Source of the DNA: a virus
Reading direction: 5' to 3' (one strand)
Virus genome (UHGV): UHGV-0277504
Length of the DNA: 64,000 nucleotides
Positions within the stretch are counted from its first letter, which is position 1. The number at the start of each line of letters is the position of its first letter. Made by a program: the position numbers and the translations under genes. Shown in pieces: positions 3,027 to 30,252 of this stretch. The notes under the pieces were generated by a model. It was given only the letters and a program-made list of their open reading frames with translations, ran no database searches and was not told the origin of the DNA.

Positions 3027-4259
3027 CTATATGTTTACCCTTATTAATAATGGTTTACTACAAACCTCTACAAGGTTTGAGAATAACTTCTCATTCCATG
3101 CTTCTTGTTTTTCTAAATATTTTCTTAATATATTTAAACTACCATTTAAGTCTGCATTAATTAACTTTCCTTCTTTACTCTTATACAATCCTCTTTTAAC
3201 TCTTTTACCAGAGAATGTAACTATATTCTTTTTAGAATCCCATATAGGTATTTCATCTAAATCAAGAAAACTAGATTTACTAGTATAAGATTCTTCCTGT
3301 AGAATGATATTGATTCCTTTTTCTTTACATTTATAAGTAAGTATTTGTATAAGTGTATAAAATGGAATTTGAATAAAAGTCTGTTTACTAGATTTTCTCA
3401 TTGTTGTGTCTTGTTTCCACCCTTTGTTATAGCCTATGACTAAGGTATTAACTTGGTTTGAAACTAGTTGATTCACAACATAATGAGTAGACTTATGAAA
3501 GTAATCTTTTACTTTATTCATTCTTTTCCTGTGAATACTACATAGTCTATGACTAGACTTTTGTCTATTCAATTTCCAAAGCAACTTTTTGTTTCTTGCT
3601 AATAACTTATTATAATAAACATTCATGCTTTTAATTGGTTTACCATTAATAATAAATGGAGTAAATACGTTAGATGATACAGTCATTAAGTTATTAATTC
3701 CTAAATCTATACTAGCATATCTACCATTATCTTTTTTCTTTTCTTTTATAAGTTTATTATACCCTATCTCAAAAACAATATGATTACCTTTAGGAATAAT
3801 CCTAACAAATTGAACTTCTTCTTTAGTTAAGTTTGTTTTAATAAAAATATTTGTTTTTGATAAGTGGATATAGCCTTTACGTTTAACAAAAGAAATAGCT
3901 TTCTTTTCGTAATGTACAATTTGTTTTCCATTCTCAGTATCTAAATATTTAGGTATTCTTGCAAAATACCCTTTCCTTCTTAAATTGAAAAAAGATTTAA
4001 AATTTTTATCTACTAACCTTTGTGTACATTTAGATACTTTAGCAGGCAAAGCTCTATAGTCTGTATTATTAGAATGAGTAAACTGTTTATTAACATCATA
4101 ATACCTTAGATACTTTTTATTTTTAAAGTAATACTGTCTTACTGCATAAAGTGTAGCATTATAAAGGTTTTTACTTAAAAAACATAAGTTATCTGCTTCT
4201 TTATATCTATTATCTTGTGTTGTTATTTGATGTTGTTCTACTCTAGTTTCATACTTCAT
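3027..4259 (-). CDS. tnpB: TnpB-like RuvC nuclease (IS200/IS605 OrfB family), a divergent paralogue lacking the zinc finger
   Basis: 410 aa. RuvC-I SIDLGINNL, RuvC-II ILQEESYTSK, RuvC-III INADLNGSLNI. The usual CxxC...CxxC between RuvC-II and RuvC-III is replaced by FSGKRVKRGLYKSKEGK. Confidence 0.7.
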   Translation of the reverse strand: MKYETRVEQHQITTQDNRYKEADNLCFLSKNLYNATLYAVRQYYFKNKKYLRYYDVNKQFTHSNNTDYRALPAKVSKCTQRLVDKNFKSFFNLRRKGYFARIPKYLDTENGKQIVHYEKKAISFVKRKGYIHLSKTNIFIKTNLTKEEVQFVRIIPKGNHIVFEIGYNKLIKEKKKDNGRYASIDLGINNLMTVSSNVFTPFIINGKPIKSMNVYYNKLLARNKKLLWKLNRQKSSHRLCSIHRKRMNKVKDYFHKSTHYVVNQLVSNQVNTLVIGYNKGWKQDTTMRKSSKQTFIQIPFYTLIQILTYKCKEKGINIILQEESYTSKSSFLDLDEIPIWDSKKNIVTFSGKRVKRGLYKSKEGKLINADLNGSLNILRKYLEKQEAWNEKLFSNLVEVCSKPLLIRVNI

Positions 4260-15579: not shown

Positions 15580-16254
15580 TTATTCCCAAACATTATTTTC
15601 AGTATATACTCTGTGTGTATTACTATCTATGTGTCTATTATGCTCATGATAAGCATTAATTTTAAATTTTACATAATCTTTTAGTTCTGACAGCTCTTTT
15701 GCTACATCTTTACGTTTAATTTGAGTGTATTCAGATACTCTGTTAACTATATACTTTTCATCTTCCATATCTTCATTCATTAGTAGTTCTTTTAATAGAA
15801 TACTTTGTAATTCTGTAAATTCTACATCATCAAACACATATCGTATTAATTCACTTTCTTCTATACCTGTAGTTAAAGCTTCAGTTAGAGATTCTACTGT
15901 AGACTCTTTTTTACCTATCAACTCTGTACTTTTATACTTTTTATTTTTTTTAATATAACTATTACGTACTCTTAGAGTTAATTTTGCTTTAATATATCCA
16001 GGAAAATCAACTTTACTGTGTATATCATATTCTTTAACAAGTTTAATAAACTGCTCGTCTATATACTCTCGTAAATCTTCCCTTTCAGCTTCATTAGATA
16101 ATATACCTGCATATTTATGATATAGAGACCATCTTAAATTTTTATATTTATTAAGTAATTTATCTATATCTCTTTCAAAATCAATAGGTATACCATCAGA
16201 ATCAATTACATATCTATTACCGTTGTTCTTCTTCATAAGGGTTTGCTCCTTCAA
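15580..16254 (-). CDS. hypothetical protein. Position just downstream of recA matches the sigma-factor-like gene of Kayvirus-type phages.
   Basis: Synteny only. No clear motif. Confidence 0.4.
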   Translation of the reverse strand: MKEQTLMKKNNGNRYVIDSDGIPIDFERDIDKLLNKYKNLRWSLYHKYAGILSNEAEREDLREYIDEQFIKLVKEYDIHSKVDFPGYIKAKLTLRVRNSYIKKNKKYKSTELIGKKESTVESLTEALTTGIEESELIRYVFDDVEFTELQSILLKELLMNEDMEDEKYIVNRVSEYTQIKRKDVAKELSELKDYVKFKINAYHEHNRHIDSNTHRVYTENNVWE

Positions 16255-16585
16255 AAATAATTTTGATTTTATGATTTTTATCCCTTACAAAAATATCTGA
16301 ATAATGTATTGTTCTAGGTACTTTAACTGTACTATTTTCATATCTAAGTAATGAATAGCCTCCTACCCATCTATCTGAGACATAATTAATATACATTACA
16401 TTAGAATCAGTGTGAGGGAAAGTACCCTCTTCAACAATTACTGATTCATTATTATCTTTTACTTTTTGAAATTTTTTAGCAATACTAATATACTCTCTAG
16501 GTGTTGTATCTTTTGAATTAGATTCACTTAAAGATTGTTTTACTCTATCTATATTTTGGTCTATTAAATTATAACTATTTGTCAT
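16217..16585 (-). CDS. hypothetical protein (122 aa)
   Basis: ORF track. Overlaps the recA stop. Confidence 0.45.
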   Translation of the reverse strand: MTNSYNLIDQNIDRVKQSLSESNSKDTTPREYISIAKKFQKVKDNNESVIVEEGTFPHTDSNVMYINYVSDRWVGGYSLLRYENSTVKVPRTIHYSDIFVRDKNHKIKIIFEGANPYEEEQR

Positions 16586-17598
16586 TCTTCATCCGTACCT
16601 TTGTTTTCAATTTCAGTACTTTTAATCTCATAAAAATCTTTAAGAGCTTGATATTCTTCAATAGTAGTAATATCTACTATTTTATTTTCTAAAGGTCGAT
16701 ACTTAGTAGGAAAGTTTTCAAAGTATACTCTACTAAATAATTCTAAATACAAATCATGATTATTAACAAGTGTAGGAACCCAATCTTTATCATAGTGTTT
16801 AATTTCTTCACCATTTAAAGTTACATAGTTACGCCATGTTCCTTTAGAAATTAAACCTCGTTCTACTGCTTCCTTATAAACTGTGTGATAAGGGTCAATA
16901 CCATCTAATAGCATCGTATCATCTTTAGAGCCTACTTCATAACTTGATAATAAATCTGCTTCCGCTTTTTGTCCTGGTGTAACTAATTTAGATTTTTTAG
17001 TTTCAATACGCATTACATGACCTCTATAAGTAGGCTTACCTGTTGTTACATCTGTTTGTTTAAGACCTGATTCAGCACCCTTGGTTACTTTAATACGTAA
17101 ACTAGCACCATGTTCAAAAGCTCTTCCACCTGTTGATTTTATAGGGTCACCATACATACCTGCGTTCATATCATCGCGAGCTTGGTTGATGATAACTAAC
17201 CCTGTATTAGTATCATTGAGTTTAGGAGTAATAGCATTGATTACTTTTTGTGTAGCTGAGGCTTTTAAACCCATTTGTTTTTCATCAATTCCTCCTTCAA
17301 TTTCTTTAGCTGTTCTTGTAGCTCCTAGAGAATCCCAAATAAATAAAATAGGTACACCAGGTGCTTTTTCGTTAAAAGTATCAATCCAATATTCTAATTC
17401 TTTTCCTACAGTTTCTACTGATAATTCAACAGTATTTTTAAGTCTACCTTCTCCTGCTTGAATAGTAAATAATTTAGATACATCTACCCCTAGTTGCTTC
17501 ATTCGTTGGTTATCTGCTGTTCCTTCAATATCAATCCAAATAGTAATAACACCTAGTTGTGTAGTTATTCTAGATAAGTGTACTGCAAACGTGGATTT
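16582..17598 (-). CDS. recA: RecA-like recombinase, exon 2 (KSTFAVHLS...IDIEGTADNQRMKQLGVDV...)
   Basis: The frame is open upstream of the track's Met back to codon AAA at 17598-17596, which is preceded by CUG and an in-frame TAA. Translation continues the Walker A motif (GSG|KST) and then RecA core motifs. Confidence 0.8.
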   Translation of the reverse strand, partial: KSTFAVHLSRITTQLGVITIWIDIEGTADNQRMKQLGVDVSKLFTIQAGEGRLKNTVELSVETVGKELEYWIDTFNEKAPGVPILFIWDSLGATRTAKEIEGGIDEKQMGLKASATQKVINAITPKLNDTNTGLVIINQARDDMNAGMYGDPIKSTGGRAFEHGASLRIKVTKGAESGLKQTDVTTGKPTYRGHVMRIETKKSKLVTPGQKAEADLLSSYEVGSKDDTMLLDGIDPYHTVYKEAVERGLISKGTWRNYVTLNGEEIKHYDKDWVPTLVNNHDLYLELFSRVYFENFPTKYRPLENKIVDITTIEEYQALKDFYEIKSTEIENKGTDEE

Positions 17599-18974
17599 CA
17601 GTTACTACCCCTAGTTTCCTAGTACTTTAACACTAATTTAATAGTGGGCTTAGACTATATCTTGAATTGCCTGGTCTGCAAGTTTTTGCTTTCGGTCTAT
17701 ATGAATATTATTATCTTGATATAGTAATTTCATTAATTCTTTAGCTTTTTTACCTGTATAACTTATTCTATAAGAGGTACTAGTTTTAGATACTTTAGGA
17801 CATTTTAAACCTAATAAATCATTAATCCAAGTACCTACATCCTTTAAAAATTCAGGATGATTATTAATTAAAGTTATAAACCATCTATTATTATAATACC
17901 CGATTGAACCATCACCATCAAATAACCCTCTTAAATAATGCTTTCTTAAATCATAAGGTATATCTTGTGTTAACCATTCTGTTTTTTTAGACTTCATAGG
18001 TACTATACCATATTTAGCTAAGTCATTACATAGTTTTTCATCGGTAACACTAAAAGTATAAGTTTGTTTTTCGTTTTTTATATAATCTCTTTTTCTATGT
18101 GATTCATATATTTTACTGTCTGAATTCAATTCTTTTTGAACTCTTTTTACTATTTCTTTATCAATCAATTCTAGTGTTAAGTAACATTGCCCTTCTCGTC
18201 TATATCTAACACACCCATCAGCCATTAATAAACCTAGTATATAAGCTTTCTCTTCAGTATCAATTACTTCAAAGAAATTTCTATTTATATTTCTATTAAC
18301 GCTTCTAGTTTGATAGTAAGAAGTATCTACTCCAAAGTCTTTTAGTATTCTACCTATTTCTCTTGCGTGTGTTGTATATACCTCTTTTATCTCTGCTATA
18401 GTCATAGACTCTTTAGTATACATTCTTAGTATATCTTGTTTTTGCTTATTAGTCCATCTTCGTTTTTTATTTGTGTCAATATTAAACTCATCTAAAATTT
18501 TCTTGATAGTGAAATAATGTGCATTATACTTATCTTGTAATTCTTTAAACGTTTTACCTTCTTGAAATGATTTTACTATATCTTGTTTCTCTTCATTAGT
18601 CCAAACTCGTTTTACCATATTATACTACTCTCCATTTTTCTAATAGATTTCGTAGGCAATTCCCATGCACTTCAAAGATTAATATCTTTTACTCTACTCA
18701 GTTACTCTCTAATACCTCTCGGTACTAGATATCTTTTCGATAGTCGTTGAACCTTCTTCTTATCTTTCAACTTAGAAGCTTGGATGCTGATTACCTACAC
18801 TATATAATATAACAAAAAGTTTTCGTTATACCATATAACTCATATACTTATTATTTTTAAACATTCACGCCTACTGTTTCCAGTTACGTTGTAGTTAATA
18901 AGTCTTTAAGGCTTCCCAGCAATTCACATGGGTTTGTAATAACTCTTTACAAGTCACTGTGGCTATTTAAGGCA
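17599..18974 (-). mobile_element. group I intron in recA (about 1376 nt) carrying a LAGLIDADG homing endonuclease gene
   Basis: Exon 1 ends ...GGC AGU GGU with a terminal U. The intron begins UGCCUUAAAUAGCCAC, so the GCCAC internal guide can pair with the exon GUGGU. The intron ends in G at 17599. GC-richer ORF-free core at 18619-18974. Confidence 0.75.
17650..18618 (-). CDS. LAGLIDADG homing endonuclease (intron-encoded)
   Basis: Two LAGLIDADG motifs: LGLLMADGCV and LRGLFDGDGSI. Confidence 0.8.
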   Translation of the reverse strand: MVKRVWTNEEKQDIVKSFQEGKTFKELQDKYNAHYFTIKKILDEFNIDTNKKRRWTNKQKQDILRMYTKESMTIAEIKEVYTTHAREIGRILKDFGVDTSYYQTRSVNRNINRNFFEVIDTEEKAYILGLLMADGCVRYRREGQCYLTLELIDKEIVKRVQKELNSDSKIYESHRKRDYIKNEKQTYTFSVTDEKLCNDLAKYGIVPMKSKKTEWLTQDIPYDLRKHYLRGLFDGDGSIGYYNNRWFITLINNHPEFLKDVGTWINDLLGLKCPKVSKTSTSYRISYTGKKAKELMKLLYQDNNIHIDRKQKLADQAIQDIV

Positions 18975-19187
18975 ACCACTGCCCGTTAAACCATACACTT
19001 CTGTAAGTCTTCCTAAAGGAATACCTCCCCCTAGAATTCTATCATATTGAGGAACCATAGTAGGAATTATATTTGTAATGTCTGCTTTATTACTATCTGA
19101 TAATAGAGTTAAACCCATTTCTTTACCTAAATCAATGGTATTGTAATCTTTCATATCTATTTCTTTACCTTTTTTTGCTCTTGCCAT
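18975..19187 (-). CDS. recA: RecA-like recombinase, exon 1 (MARAKKGKEI...ILGGGIPLGRLTEVYGLTGSG)
   Basis: RBS AAAGGTGAT 6 nt before the ATG at 19187. The ORF in the track continues into the intron and stops after CLK. Confidence 0.75.
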
Positions 19188-19210
19188 TATCTTATCACCT
19201 TTCAATATAA

Positions 19211-19240
19211 AAATCAAATAAAAGAGTGCTTAAGCACTCT
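19211..19240 (-). terminator. rho-independent terminator (18-nt perfect palindrome AGAGTGCTTAAGCACTCT followed by a U-rich run)
   Basis: 5 nt downstream of the stop of the 19245..20483 gene on the minus strand. Confidence 0.55.
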
Positions 19241-19244
19241 AATA

Positions 19245-20483
19245 TTAAATGTCTAGATTTAAACCTTTTAAAACATCATCAACATTTTTTGGCTGTTCCA
19301 TTTTAGGAGGTTCTTGATATTGTTGTTGATTTTGTTGTACGTTTTGTTGTTGAGGTGGTTGTTGCTGACTTCCAGTGTCGAAAGGTACTTGAGAATCATT
19401 AATAGTATTCTCATCAAAATTCTCCCAAGGATTATTTCCTTGTTGTGGTTGCTGTGGTGCTTGTTGTACCTGATTAAACTGTTGCTGTTGAGTTGGTTGT
19501 TGAGTATTCTGTTGCGATTGAGTATTAATAGTATTCCAATCATTCTGTGGTACTTGTTGTGTGTTTTGTTGTGGTTGATTACTTAAATTACCTGGTAACT
19601 GTTGCTCTACATGCTGTTGTGATGGTTGTGACTGCTGTGTTTGTTGTACTGGTTGTTGAGGTTGGCTAGGTGCATCCCCTAATGTATTTGTATCTCTATT
19701 AAAAGTAAAATTGTCTGTTTCTAAAGGTGTTCCATTTACTTTATTAATTAAGAAGTTAACAAGATTAGGGTTCACCTCTTCTGTAGGTTGAGCTAACTTA
19801 TCTAAGTCTGAAGATAACTCTCTCCAGTTAGAAGGTAAGTTACCGAATTGGTATTGTGGATTAGAGTATACTTGAACATACCAATTTGTTTTATCATTCT
19901 CTTTTGCTTTCTTAAACATTACAGGATAAGCAACGTCTTCAGAAATAAAACTAAATTTAGCTGAAGGAGAAGGATTAAACATTTCATCTCCTAATTGACT
20001 AGCTAAAGCATTATATGCTGTAATAGGAATTTCTAAAGGTGAAATCTTAGGATTACCTGAGTTATCTACTACAGGTTGTAAAGTACCACCATTATTAATA
20101 TACTCAATAACTTCAATATAATATCTATTTGACGGTCTATTAGGGAATCGACTAAAAGGAACCTTATTAGCTATCCAAGATTCAATAAATGGGTCAATAA
20201 CTGACTCTCCTGATGTAGCTGGTAGTGTTAAACCTACGAATTTTTGCTCATTGTTTTTATTGTTGAAGTTAATACCTGTGTTTCTAAATTTCTTATAAAA
20301 TTCTAAAGAACCTTCTTTTTTAGGTGGTAAAATACGTACTAAAATTGAATCTTTAGTTGAACCATCTTTTTGCTTACCTAATCGAATAACTGGATTTTTA
20401 GGTGTATAGTATTCCACCTCATTATTGTTATTATTTTGTGTTTCTTTTGCTTGTTGGTTAATAAATTCTGTAAATGCTGACAT
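19245..20483 (-). CDS. putative ssDNA-binding protein with a long Q/P/N-rich low-complexity linker
   Basis: 412 aa. C-terminal half is QQPVQQTQQSQPSQQ...-type low complexity ending in an acidic/hydrophobic tip (DDVLKGLNLDI). Position between polA and recA. Function inferred, not shown. Confidence 0.35.
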   Translation of the reverse strand: MSAFTEFINQQAKETQNNNNNEVEYYTPKNPVIRLGKQKDGSTKDSILVRILPPKKEGSLEFYKKFRNTGINFNNKNNEQKFVGLTLPATSGESVIDPFIESWIANKVPFSRFPNRPSNRYYIEVIEYINNGGTLQPVVDNSGNPKISPLEIPITAYNALASQLGDEMFNPSPSAKFSFISEDVAYPVMFKKAKENDKTNWYVQVYSNPQYQFGNLPSNWRELSSDLDKLAQPTEEVNPNLVNFLINKVNGTPLETDNFTFNRDTNTLGDAPSQPQQPVQQTQQSQPSQQHVEQQLPGNLSNQPQQNTQQVPQNDWNTINTQSQQNTQQPTQQQQFNQVQQAPQQPQQGNNPWENFDENTINDSQVPFDTGSQQQPPQQQNVQQNQQQYQEPPKMEQPKNVDDVLKGLNLDI

Positions 20484-22099: not shown

Positions 22100-23196
22100 T
22101 TACTTGTGTACAATATAATTTATTTATTATATTGTATCTATTGTCATTTAAACAATAGCTATATATCTCTATATAGGACAGACTATATCATATATCATTT
22201 CTGTGGTAGGTTTATTGTTTATTTACTGTTTCTAAATTTATATCCTTTATACTCTACAAAGTCATCTGTTTTTCTTAATTTATCTCTCAATGTCTTATGA
22301 TTATTCATGTTGAGTAGTTTCATCACCTTATTCATACTATACTTAGTATACAATAGATTACCGTCTAAGTCAAATACATCAATTTTCATATTTTTACTTC
22401 TTTTAGACTCTTTATTTACATACTCCCACTTATAACCTTTATGTGATTTATGTCTTCCAGAAATTACTTGACTTATTTTTGATGGGCTAAAATACCCACC
22501 AGTTTCTCTTTGTGCTTGAGTGGGTGAATCCCACACCTTAACAATATTACCTTCCATATCTTTTTGATATACTGCTTTATTAGATACCTTTTTAAGTTGT
22601 TCCCTAGCACTATACGTATTTTGTCTACCTTGTTTAGCAGAGTGTAAGGTATTGCCCCTATAATCTACCCATTCTAGGTTGTTTACGTGGTTATTCAATC
22701 TATTATTATCGATGTGGTTAACAACATTTAGATTAGGATTATTGTTAGGTATAAAAAGCTTTGCTACTAATCTATGCACTAATATGTTACCCTCAGTAAC
22801 TGTAACTTGTTTGTACCCTGAATTAATAATCCATGGTTTTAATTCATGCTTAGTAATTTTATTTATTACTCTACCTGTATTACTTACTTTATATTTATCA
22901 TCATAATCTTTCCAAACTTCTTTCATATACTCTTCCTTACTATTCCCTACCACAGAAATAATATCCTTGCTTTCGTGGGTGTGTATTGGTTGTGCTACCT
23001 CAACACCTAGTCGTTGAGCCTTCCCCATACTTCCATACACTTTCAGGGGCTTGGTTGCGGATTCTCTTTATTCTTAACCTTTTTACTGTACCAAACACAT
23101 TACTGTTTGCCCTTATATATGTTTCCATTATAAGTTAGTAGTTAAGACCTAACAAGTTTCTCCCCGCAGTTAACAAAGTTTTACAACCCCAATTTA
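22100..23196 (-). mobile_element. group I intron in polA (about 1097 nt) carrying an HNH homing endonuclease gene
   Basis: P1 is predicted as exon AACCCU paired to intron GGGGUU, with the UAAAUU loop and a U.G wobble at the splice site. Exon 2 start AAUUUA can pair with that UAAAUU (P10). The predicted last intron nucleotide is A, not the canonical G. Confidence 0.65.
22219..23040 (-). CDS. HNH homing endonuclease (intron-encoded; GTG start)
   Basis: VNHIDNNRLNNHVNNLEWV HNH motif. N-terminal half resembles NUMOD/AP2-type DNA-binding repeats. Confidence 0.75.
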   Translation of the reverse strand: MYGSMGKAQRLGVEVAQPIHTHESKDIISVVGNSKEEYMKEVWKDYDDKYKVSNTGRVINKITKHELKPWIINSGYKQVTVTEGNILVHRLVAKLFIPNNNPNLNVVNHIDNNRLNNHVNNLEWVDYRGNTLHSAKQGRQNTYSAREQLKKVSNKAVYQKDMEGNIVKVWDSPTQAQRETGGYFSPSKISQVISGRHKSHKGYKWEYVNKESKRSKNMKIDVFDLDGNLLYTKYSMNKVMKLLNMNNHKTLRDKLRKTDDFVEYKGYKFRNSK

Positions 23197-25485: not shown

Positions 25486-25518
25486 TAAAAAAAGAGACAA
25501 ATTTTTTAATCTGTCTCT
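25486..25518 (-). terminator. rho-independent terminator overlapping the stop codon of the HU-like gene
   Basis: AGAGACAGAU...UUUGUCUCU stem then U7 on the minus strand. Confidence 0.5.
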
Positions 25519-29311: not shown

Positions 29312-30252
29312 CCTGTGTATTCAATAGTGGTCGTTAATCACTACCAGTTCTCTTATGAACTTCTCTATGTTTCCATAGATGAGTAGACTATATCATTCTT
29401 CCTATTAGGAAGTCCACCGTTTCGATTTAAACAAGTTTTATATGATTATTACTCAATACTTGTACCACTTGGCTCTAACCTTATCCCTCCACATATGTGG
29501 ATAGGTTACAGATAGTCGTTAGGCATTTAATATAAATTGTAATCATTTCTTTTCAAATTTTCTAGGCGTTAATCTTCTATACTCAGGGTAATTATCAGAA
29601 TCTAATCTATAACCAATTGTAGTATGTCCTATACTTAAAATTCTAGATGCTTCGGATGTACTCTCGTATTTTATACCCTCTATCTCTATTGCTCTAGAGT
29701 TAGCTTTCTTTACTGAATTTATCATCTTTTCTGTTTTAGGTTTACCATACTGATGATTACCTTGACCTCTCATTTGTTGTTTTCTCATTTCTCTAATCTC
29801 TTCTTTTCGAGGGTTTGTTGTAAATATATCTCCTCCTACAGAAGATAATTTTACATTATAATAGTTATCATCATAAACTGCATTGGTTTTTAAAATTAAT
29901 TCTTCCTCAGCTTTTTCTAATTCTTCTGTCGTATAGTAATCTTTTATAATTGTTTTAGTAAATTTATCTTTACCATATTTTTTAATATCTTCTTTGAGAT
30001 ACCTACCTGAACCTAAGTACTTTTCCCAGTCATTTATTCTGTTATAAAGAAATTTACCTATATATTTTTTACCATTTACAGAGCATGTAGTCACATAAAC
30101 AGCTCCAACAGGTTTATTTTCCATAATATCACTCTCCTATGAGTGATTACAATTTATATATTTAGCAACGGATTACCATATCATTTGACTTAGGCTTTCC
30201 CGTTTTAGATGGGTTTTTCGATAACGATTACTCGTTAAAGGTGCATTTATTT
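29312..30252 (-). mobile_element. group I intron in nrdE (about 941 nt) carrying a GIY-YIG homing endonuclease gene
   Basis: Exon 1 ends ...AAU UUG UGU with a terminal U. The intron ends in G. Inserted in the active-site SNLC-EI codons. GC-richer ORF-free flanks. Confidence 0.7.
29543..30124 (-). CDS. GIY-YIG homing endonuclease (intron-encoded)
   Basis: GAVYVTT...NGKKYIGK GIY-YIG motif with an extended C-terminal DNA-binding region. Confidence 0.75.
   Translation of the reverse strand: MENKPVGAVYVTTCSVNGKKYIGKFLYNRINDWEKYLGSGRYLKEDIKKYGKDKFTKTIIKDYYTTEELEKAEEELILKTNAVYDDNYYNVKLSSVGGDIFTTNPRKEEIREMRKQQMRGQGNHQYGKPKTEKMINSVKKANSRAIEIEGIKYESTSEASRILSIGHTTIGYRLDSDNYPEYRRLTPRKFEKK

Follow-up and report, generated by a model that had tools for sequence, protein, structure and literature searches.

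The closest described systems are introns in the recA genes of Kayvirus phages, which carry the endonuclease I-MsaII in MSA6, fRuSau02 and 515A1 and I-812II in phage 812. The record of phage 812 (EF136586) joins RecA812 from two pieces and lists I-812II as the endonuclease encoded in the intron, the element having been named in 2006, and that of MSA6 contains rec together with an endonuclease named I-MsaII. The Rec/I-MsaII intron is listed as a predicted group I intron in the fRuSau02 paper (PMC5618024), the Kayvirus intron and its endonuclease are treated in the same way in PMC7698491, and a dedicated review (Lavigne and Vandersteegen 2013) is among the works cited in PMC6445280. Here we analyze the corresponding locus in UHGV-0277504, a stretch of viral DNA of 64,000 nucleotides (nt) that we refer to as the window, where a recA-like gene is interrupted by a 1376-nt insert. 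The window comes from a Staphylococcus epidermidis myovirus of the genus Sepunavirus and, over 3 kb, is 99.8% identical to Quidividi (MH321490) and 99.6% identical to phiIPLA-C1C (KP027447), two phages of the same genus with an essentially identical recA intron locus. The Quidividi record already joins the two parts of the gene, with the remark 'Contains intron encoding a DOD homing endonuclease; RecA'.

Other elements also invite comparison. The IA introns of phages (td, nrdB and sunY of T4, orf142 and nrdE of Twort, and the DNA polymerase gene of SPO1) have the same core, with helices P7.1 and P7.2 between P7 and P3', and share with the window intron a host gene of conserved DNA metabolism, an in-frame stop that is reached early and an endonuclease open reading frame (ORF) that is looped out; the window intron differs from them in its LAGLIDADG enzyme and in the location of the ORF in P8, where the 3' end of the gene encodes P8', J8/7 and P7'. 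A group I intron likewise occurs in recA of the Bacillus anthracis/B. cereus group, also a Firmicute-associated genome, according to the citation of Ko et al. 2002 in PMC3984707. Finally, the P-loop of RecA and RadA is a documented intein hot spot, occupied in the RadA of Pyrococcus horikoshii and in an E. coli RecA (PMC4513877). Those inteins are likewise selfish, LAGLIDADG-type homing elements in the Walker A region that leave the host protein inactive until splicing, but they splice at the level of protein rather than RNA, are not homologous to the element described here, and are inserted about 1–2 codons away.

An earlier note, made from the sequence alone, had proposed that a group I intron with a LAGLIDADG endonuclease splits recA inside its Walker A codons. 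Our analysis confirms this observation, but the intron has already been annotated and named in closely related phages and is ordinary for this phage group. Beyond the earlier note, we find that the gene lies on the minus strand, that the ORF occupies the loop of P8 and shares bases with P8', J8/7 and P7', and that the element is already annotated or published in relatives. The locus shares its insertion site (GSG/KST, the slash marking the split), its architecture and, with MSA6, its length of 1376 nt with the Kayvirus introns. It differs from them in lying in a Sepunavirus genome, in exons that are only 75–80% identical to theirs, and in a 7-base converted tract that sets it apart from intronless Sepunavirus alleles. 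What is added here is the contrast between an intron that is a 97–100% copy of the Kayvirus element and exons of 75–80% identity, together with that 7-base exon footprint relative to the intronless phage phiIBB-SEP1 (SEP1).

The recA-like gene is split between two codons of its Walker A motif

18975 to 19187, minus strand: recA exon 1, 71 codons (MARAKKG...YGLTGSG), its protein identical to that of intronless SEP1.
17599 to 18974, minus strand: group I intron, 1376 nt, UGCCUUAAAUAGCCAC ... GUAACUG, absent from SEP1, BE24, A5W and PSU4.
16582 to 17598, minus strand: recA exon 2, from KSTFAVHL... to the stop codon, identical to SEP1 at 1017 of 1017 nt.

Exon 1 ends in GTG TAT GGT TTA ACG GGC AGT GGT (YGLTGSG), its last base being the U of GGU, and the unspliced frame continues with TGC CTT AAA TAG, that is, C-L-K-stop, with the UAG at intron nt 10–12. 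The insert opens with TGCCTTAAATAGCCAC and closes with GTAACTG (more fully, ...GGGGTAGTAACTG). Exon 2 begins with AAA TCC ACG (KST) at 17598 and runs to its stop at 16582. The early stop had been described correctly, as had an exon 2 frame open back to AAA-TCC-ACG behind a G and an in-frame TAA, apart from a trivial matter of wording: one CTG codon stands between the TAA and the AAA (TAA-CTG-AAA).

Joining GGT to AAA gives a 409-amino-acid (aa) product with a continuous match to the Pfam RecA family over residues 26–289 (E 2e-29, 103.3 bits against a cut-off of 27). Walker A is intact after joining, with GLTGSGKST opposite GPESSGKTT of E. coli RecA, and the residue alignment with the E. coli protein, a check that the earlier note had named, runs unbroken through the P-loop (GSGKST opposite SSGKTT; GRLTEVYGLTGSGKSTFAV versus GRIVEIYGPESSGKTTLTL). 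The alignment GRIVEIYGPESSGKTT places the split between the Gly and Lys codons, GLTGSG/KST, in agreement with the proposed GSG/KST junction. Intronless alleles lead to the same position. The joined coding sequence matches the uninterrupted recA of SEP1 at 1223 of 1230 nt and at all 409 amino acids, and the alleles of SEP1 and BE24, which are of the same genus as the window, and of Kayvirus A5W all read ...GGT/AAATC... with nothing between the two halves, GGTTCAGGT being followed directly by AAATCCAC in SEP1 and GGCAGTGGT directly by AAATCTAC in A5W. Because the bases flanking each boundary differ, the splice sites cannot be shifted, and an insert first put at about 1.38 kb measures exactly 1376 nt (18974–17599). 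The spliced RNA is predicted to read ...GGCAGUGGU/AAAUCCACG at the junction, and the protein would yield the junction-spanning tryptic peptide LTEVYGLTGSGK from the region ...VYGLTGSGK.

ORF calling by itself returns recA pieces of 84 aa and 306 aa with a 322-aa ORF (18618–17650) between them, the mis-annotation that had been anticipated. The original record of phiIPLA-C1C (KP027447) has exactly two genes here, a 'recombination protein' at 214–438 and a 'DNA repair protein' at 1899–2819 in place of the two recA exons, and many Kayvirus records list 'recombinase (x2)'.

The insert is predicted to fold as a group I intron of the phage IA type

The insert is very probably a mobile group I intron of the phage IA type, set between the Gly and Lys codons of Walker A in this recA-like gene. 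Its elements were traced in the window and in an alignment of five homologous introns trimmed of their ORFs (window, MSA6, 812p, Romulus and V1SA19), with minimum free energy (MFE) folding, RNAalifold and the Rfam group I model RF00028. Assignment to class IA follows from two extra helices, P7.1 and P7.2, located after the 5' strand of P7 and before the 3' strand of P3; within this class, IA2 and IA1 are the candidate subgroups.

18959 to 18965, minus strand: internal guide sequence UAGCCAC (guide GCCAC) of P1; pairing analysis, five-intron alignment, RNAalifold.
18938 to 18958, minus strand: P2 hairpin, AGUGACUU and GAGUUAUU; RNAalifold, all 8 pairs kept, one of them compensatory.
18925 to 18932, minus strand: P3 5' strand CCCAUGUG; alignment and RNAalifold, with a compensatory change from U-A to C-G in Romulus.
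18916 to 18921, minus strand: P4 5' strand UGCUGG (P element AAUUGCUGG); RF00028, alignment, RNAalifold.
18793 to 18912, minus strand: P5 with a long extension of about 120 nt (P5a, P5b with a GAAA loop, and a long P5d hairpin); alignment, MFE folding, RNAalifold.
18785 to 18790, minus strand: P4 3' strand UCAGCA (Q element AAUCAGCA); RF00028, alignment, RNAalifold.
18752 to 18783, minus strand: P6 and P6a; RF00028 and RNAalifold, with a compensatory change from U-A to C-G.
18741 to 18747, minus strand: P7 5' strand ACGACUA (R element UUCAACGACUA) with a bulged C; RF00028, 6 of 6 pairs invariant.
18709 to 18728, minus strand: P7.1 hairpin with a GAGA loop; MFE folding and RNAalifold, 2 compensatory pairs.
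18674 to 18689, minus strand: P7.2 hairpin; MFE folding and RNAalifold, 3 compensatory pairs.
18662 to 18669, minus strand: P3 3' strand UGCAUGGG; alignment and RNAalifold.
18655 to 18661, minus strand: P8 5' strand AAUUGCC; alignment and RNAalifold.
17652 to 17671, minus strand: P8 3' strand GGCAAUU, J8/7 CAAGAUA and P7 3' strand UAGUCU (S element AAGAUAUAGUC), which double as the last seven endonuclease codons.
17599 to 17650, minus strand: P9.0 (AG/CU), P9 hairpin, P9.1 hairpin with a GAAA loop, and the terminal G at 17599; RF00028, alignment, MFE folding, RNAalifold.

In P1, the exon bases GUGGU and the intron bases UG pair with UAGCCAC, forming an invariant U.G wobble at the splice site, and all 7 pairs are kept in all five homologues; the pairing of a GCCAC guide with exon GUGGU had been proposed from this one sequence and extends to the whole set. 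A 5' exon ending in U and an intron ending in G, likewise noticed earlier, are the rule in all five, with the U taking part in the U.G pair with the guide. The terminal G stands directly before the 3' exon (...GUAACUG/AAAUCC), a boundary fixed by the intronless alleles. J3/4 is AAU, the P3 and P7 helices cross in the pseudoknot typical of group I introns, and all of the P, Q, R and S elements are present (AAUUGCUGG, AAUCAGCA, UUCAACGACUA and AAGAUAUAGUC). A first proposal for P2 (UUGUAA/UUACAA) was broken in 3 of 30 cells and was replaced by the RNAalifold helix listed above.

The five-intron alignment bears the structure out. Standard pairs fill 97% of the cells over 100 proposed pairs, and 11 pairs, located in P3, P5a, P5b, P6a, P7.1, P7.2 and P9, show compensatory changes, compared with 4.0 ± 1.4 in shuffled alignments (none of 500 shuffles reached 11) and 0–3 when the partners are slid by 1–3 columns. 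RNAalifold, to which no structure was supplied, returned P1, P3, P4, P5, P5a/b/d, P6a, P7.1, P7.2, P8, P9 and P9.1. Since P7 never varies, covariation neither supports nor contradicts it. A piecewise search with RF00028 gave partial matches that stay below the gathering score: one at 18921–18741 (model positions 60–148, P4-P5-P6-J6/7-P7; 21.2 bits, E 0.0027) and one at 17720–17630 (model positions 169–253, P8'-J8/7-P7'-P9; 18.7 bits, E 0.0052). The two follow the order of the model, one on each side of the ORF, and both fall short of the 50-bit threshold. Together with the RNAalifold core and the compensatory changes, they uphold the original identification as a group I intron.

Parts of the core can also be recognized in other phage introns. 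The P3–P5 segment is 78–86% identical to introns of Twort, PBS1, phiKZ and A9, and P3–P5 and P6–P7 are about 83% identical to the lysin-gene intron of PT1-4, a related intron with a displaced ORF that exceeds the RF00028 threshold at 85.9 bits.

The endonuclease gene occupies the P8 loop and extends into the core

17650 to 18618, minus strand: double-motif LAGLIDADG homing endonuclease, 322 aa, orthologue of I-MsaII and I-812II; Pfam, PHROG.
18628 to 18633, minus strand: ribosome-binding site (RBS) GGAGAG, 9 nt before the endonuclease ATG, in the P8 loop; an RBS is annotated there in Quidividi.
18430 to 18609, minus strand: two tandem repeats of about 48 aa at the endonuclease N-terminus (RVWTNEEKQDI... 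and RRWTNKQKQDI...), with weak helix-turn-helix-like Pfam hits.
18214 to 18243, minus strand: LAGLIDADG motif 1, YILGLLMADG, aa 126–135, conserved acidic residue present.
17908 to 17937, minus strand: LAGLIDADG motif 2, YLRGLFDGDG, aa 228–237, conserved acidic residue present.
18805 to 18814, minus strand: TGTTATATTA, the exact Kayvirus late-promoter -10 consensus, within the 3' strand of P5d and 187 nt ahead of the ATG of the endonuclease gene.

The intron-borne 322-aa ORF had been assigned to the LAGLIDADG family, and Pfam LAGLIDADG_3 matches it in two stretches (E 2.2e-15, 57.1 bits against a cut-off of 22.5); the endonuclease family PHROG 4645 also matches it (E 6e-139). Its tandem N-terminal repeats are probably extra DNA-binding modules. 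A sequence search of the endonuclease against the PDB gave no meaningful match. The last seven codons, given as Q A I Q D I V, use the same bases as P8', J8/7 and P7'. The recA intron of the Bacillus group is reportedly small and without an ORF. Phage introns mostly carry enzymes of the GIY-YIG, HNH, PD-(D/E)xK or EDxHD kinds (PMC3984707), and the LAGLIDADG gene is therefore a less usual passenger, though not a new one.

The promoter-like motif TGTTATATTA is not enriched in the window (3 matches, 1.74 expected), for which reason we keep it only as a lead from the literature; at the homologous promoter pL154 of phage 515A1, in the same position, RNA sequencing showed no clear step (PMC7698491). 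The motif stands in the 3' strand of P5d in each of the four homologues whose endonuclease gene is intact. In the V1SA19 intron, where the endonuclease gene is deleted, TGTTATACTA takes its place, a change that turns a G.U pair into G-C; as a single sequence, this is anecdotal. A weaker possibility is that the location of P8', J8/7 and P7' within the ORF, combined with the late-promoter-like motif in P5d, could mean that expression of the endonuclease excludes splicing of recA and the reverse, which would time the production of RecA.

Near-identical introns lie in diverged exons beside a short exon footprint

Relative to Kayvirus MSA6, the window intron is 98.9% identical in its 5' 356 nt, 97.4% in the ORF and 100% in its 3' 51 nt, compared with 80.3% and 75.4% in the two exons. 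The intron is found in about 97 phage records and is missing from many Kayvirus and most Sepunavirus records. In the Silviavirus V1SA19 (vB_SauM-V1SA19, ON814134) the same P-loop intron has an internally deleted endonuclease gene, a total length of 755 nt (2004–2758) and a different P9 region; with this deletion and with both occupied and intronless alleles on record, empty, full and decaying sites therefore all exist.

18978 to 18990, minus strand: co-conversion footprint, the sole 7 differences from SEP1 over the 1230-nt coding sequence, -16 to -4 from the insertion site.

All 7 changes are silent and 6 of them match the Kayvirus exon. They include a switch of a serine codon from TCA to AGT, which creates GUGGU. 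AGTGGT ends exon 1 in every intron-bearing allele, across three genera, whereas in Sepunavirus alleles that lack the intron this serine is encoded by TCA or TCG (TCAGGT or TCGGGT); with TCAGGT, only 3 of the 5 exon pairs of P1 could form. Quidividi and phiIPLA-C1C have the -10 to -4 part of the footprint and not the -16/-15 part, and the window exon 1 accordingly carries two more Kayvirus-like bases than theirs (GGT TTA versus GGG CTA). Downstream of the insertion site, the first Kayvirus-specific base, at +6, was not converted.

We read the footprint as a short co-conversion tract that may have been retained because it supplies the guide pairing. A near-identical intron in diverged exons and 7 silent bases that restore this pairing fit recent homing between genera. 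More tentatively, and at a strength that we would call possible rather than probable, the window and SEP1 may be a natural before-and-after pair of a very recent move from a Kayvirus-type phage into a Sepunavirus. On that reading, the surviving tract would be extremely short, reaching at most 16 nt upstream and less than 6 nt downstream, and would coincide with the P1 bases, and selection for splicing, not the mechanics of recombination alone, would set which bases of the flank travel with the intron between diverged phages.

A model for splicing and homing

From these features the following course of events can be proposed. The precursor mRNA would be transcribed through the intron, and ribosomes on exon 1 would stop three codons into it; with so early a stop, a ribosome would not run into the ribozyme. 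The RNA would then fold into P1, P2, P3–P8 (P3 and P7 forming the pseudoknot) and P9. An exogenous guanosine held in P7 would attack after the U of the U.G pair, and the freed exon 1 would attack after the terminal G (17599), joining GGU to AAA and restoring an intact 409-aa RecA. In a mixed infection, the endonuclease is expected to cut intronless recA at the P-loop codons, and repair from an intron-bearing genome would copy the intron and a few exon bases next to it. The catalytic steps, the activity of the enzyme and its cleavage site are predictions from the sequence.

Alternative explanations

Several observations weigh against a functional group I intron. We found no direct splicing data for the recA intron in the literature, whether from reverse-transcription PCR or from a junction-spanning peptide, and proteomics of fRuSau02, which carries the Kayvirus homologue, recovered peptides from both recombinase exons and no junction peptide, its authors cautioning that such data are no proof of continuity (PMC5618024). 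A search of 16000–20000 and of the full window with Rfam gave no hit to RF00028, the fragments described above being the most that a piecewise search returned. This is attributable to the 969-nt LAGLIDADG gene, an insert of about 1 kb in the P8 loop, and also to the expansions of P5 and P7.1/7.2, which the model is unable to span. The covariation set consists of only five related introns, one of which was itself the source of the proposed structure. The single-sequence MFE fold of the ORF-trimmed intron gives local hairpins and misses the long-range helices P3, P4, P6 and P8, and the proposed structure lies 45 kcal/mol above the minimum; we give this little weight because it is common in AT-rich group I introns and because the pseudoknot cannot be represented. 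Finally, no clear P10 was found when the 3' exon was compared by eye with the P1 loop.

A different account of the locus is that a homing endonuclease gene cassette has divided recA into two pieces, each translated on its own, whose polypeptides then reassemble without any splicing of RNA. Such an arrangement has a precedent in the two-piece nrdA of Aeromonas phage Aeh1. It would suit the two pieces obtained by ORF calling and the several GenBank records that annotate two genes, and the fRuSau02 proteomics cannot separate it from splicing (PMC5618024). We nevertheless consider it highly improbable: exon 2 has neither a start codon nor an RBS at KST, its first ATG (17502) lying 32 codons downstream; two chains would have to come together to form the P-loop, within which the break lies; the roughly 400 nt of non-coding flank fold as a conserved group I core with compensatory changes; and the U...G boundaries recur in all five homologues. 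The element might instead be a dead relic in a recA pseudogene, the phage making use of the host RecA or of another phage recombinase. Rfam scores below the gathering threshold would be in keeping with this, and splicing in the window phage is a prediction. We regard decay as very unlikely, since the exons are undamaged (409 of 409 amino acids as in SEP1 RecA, and 1017 of 1017 nt in exon 2), all core helices pair with P7 and J8/7 invariant, and the endonuclease ORF is unbroken and keeps its two acidic motifs; moreover, the silent exon changes keep the guide pairing, which is relevant only if splicing is under selection.

An intein or a group II intron in this place has next to no probability. 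The enzyme is of the LAGLIDADG ('DOD') type typical of inteins, GenBank notes speak of an 'intein DOD homing endonuclease', and the RecA/RadA P-loop is a known site of intein insertion (PMC4513877), but here the recA frame meets a stop codon after three codons of insert sequence, and the endonuclease has an ORF to itself behind a dedicated RBS. A group II intron is opposed by the lack of a reverse transcriptase and of any group II match in Rfam over the region and the window, and the group I elements P, Q, R and S are present in full. The intein, the group II intron and the two-piece RecA were all rejected on the sequence itself, and a group I intron remains the reading that we favor by a strong degree of belief.

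Neighboring genes and other introns

19223 to 19240, minus strand: terminator-like hairpin separating recA from the Q-rich gene upstream of it; Quidividi has a terminator annotated here.

The gene directly upstream of recA (19245–20483, minus strand) encodes a 412-aa protein whose C-terminal half is very rich in Q and N, and on which the Quidividi record remarks 'so many Q residues; some homology to ss DNA binding protein'. Scanning the region for sigma-70 promoters gave no more than the background number of matches, 13 where 14.9 were expected.

The window also appears to carry introns in polA and nrdE, at places where Quidividi annotates none. The family A DNA polymerase gene appears split at about 23200–22150 (minus strand), between flanking ORFs at 25500–23194 and 21955–21110. 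The N-terminal ORF has 768 aa (exonuclease and the start of DNA_pol_A), the C-terminal one 281 aa (DNA_pol_A profile positions 170–380), and a 273-aa NUMOD4/HNH endonuclease ORF (23040–22219) lies between them. This insert has group I R-, Q- and S-like elements and partial RF00028 matches at 23178–22965 and 22269–22159, and the polymerase intron annotated in Quidividi is at a different position. At about 30250–29300 (minus strand; ORFs 31401–30247, 30124–29543 and 29266–28343), a 193-aa GIY-YIG/I-TevI-like endonuclease ORF is flanked by an upstream 384-aa ORF and by a 307-aa ORF (RNR barrel profile positions 223–523); an S-like element, ATGATATAGTC, lies at 29396–29386, and nrdA is uninterrupted in Quidividi. 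If nrdE is indeed split, this 15-kb stretch would hold three introns with three different endonuclease families. V1SA19 has a second group I intron farther downstream in recA (3071–3457), after ...IDEKQLG, with an RF00028 score of 42.4 bits, and its record annotates recA as three 'recombinase' fragments plus small hypothetical ORFs.

Significance

General knowledge of group I introns is unchanged by the recA intron described here. Without the join, recA is called as a fragment of 74–84 aa plus a 306-aa protein lacking the P-loop, as in several deposited genomes, and such gene inventories matter because these phages are candidates for therapy. The locus also presents a clear case of a selfish element lodged where the codons of an essential-type gene are most conserved, in the same P-loop region that is favored by the inteins of RecA and RadA. 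The comparison of SEP1 with the window provides a clean record from nature of an intron invading across phage genera while leaving a minimal footprint in the exons.

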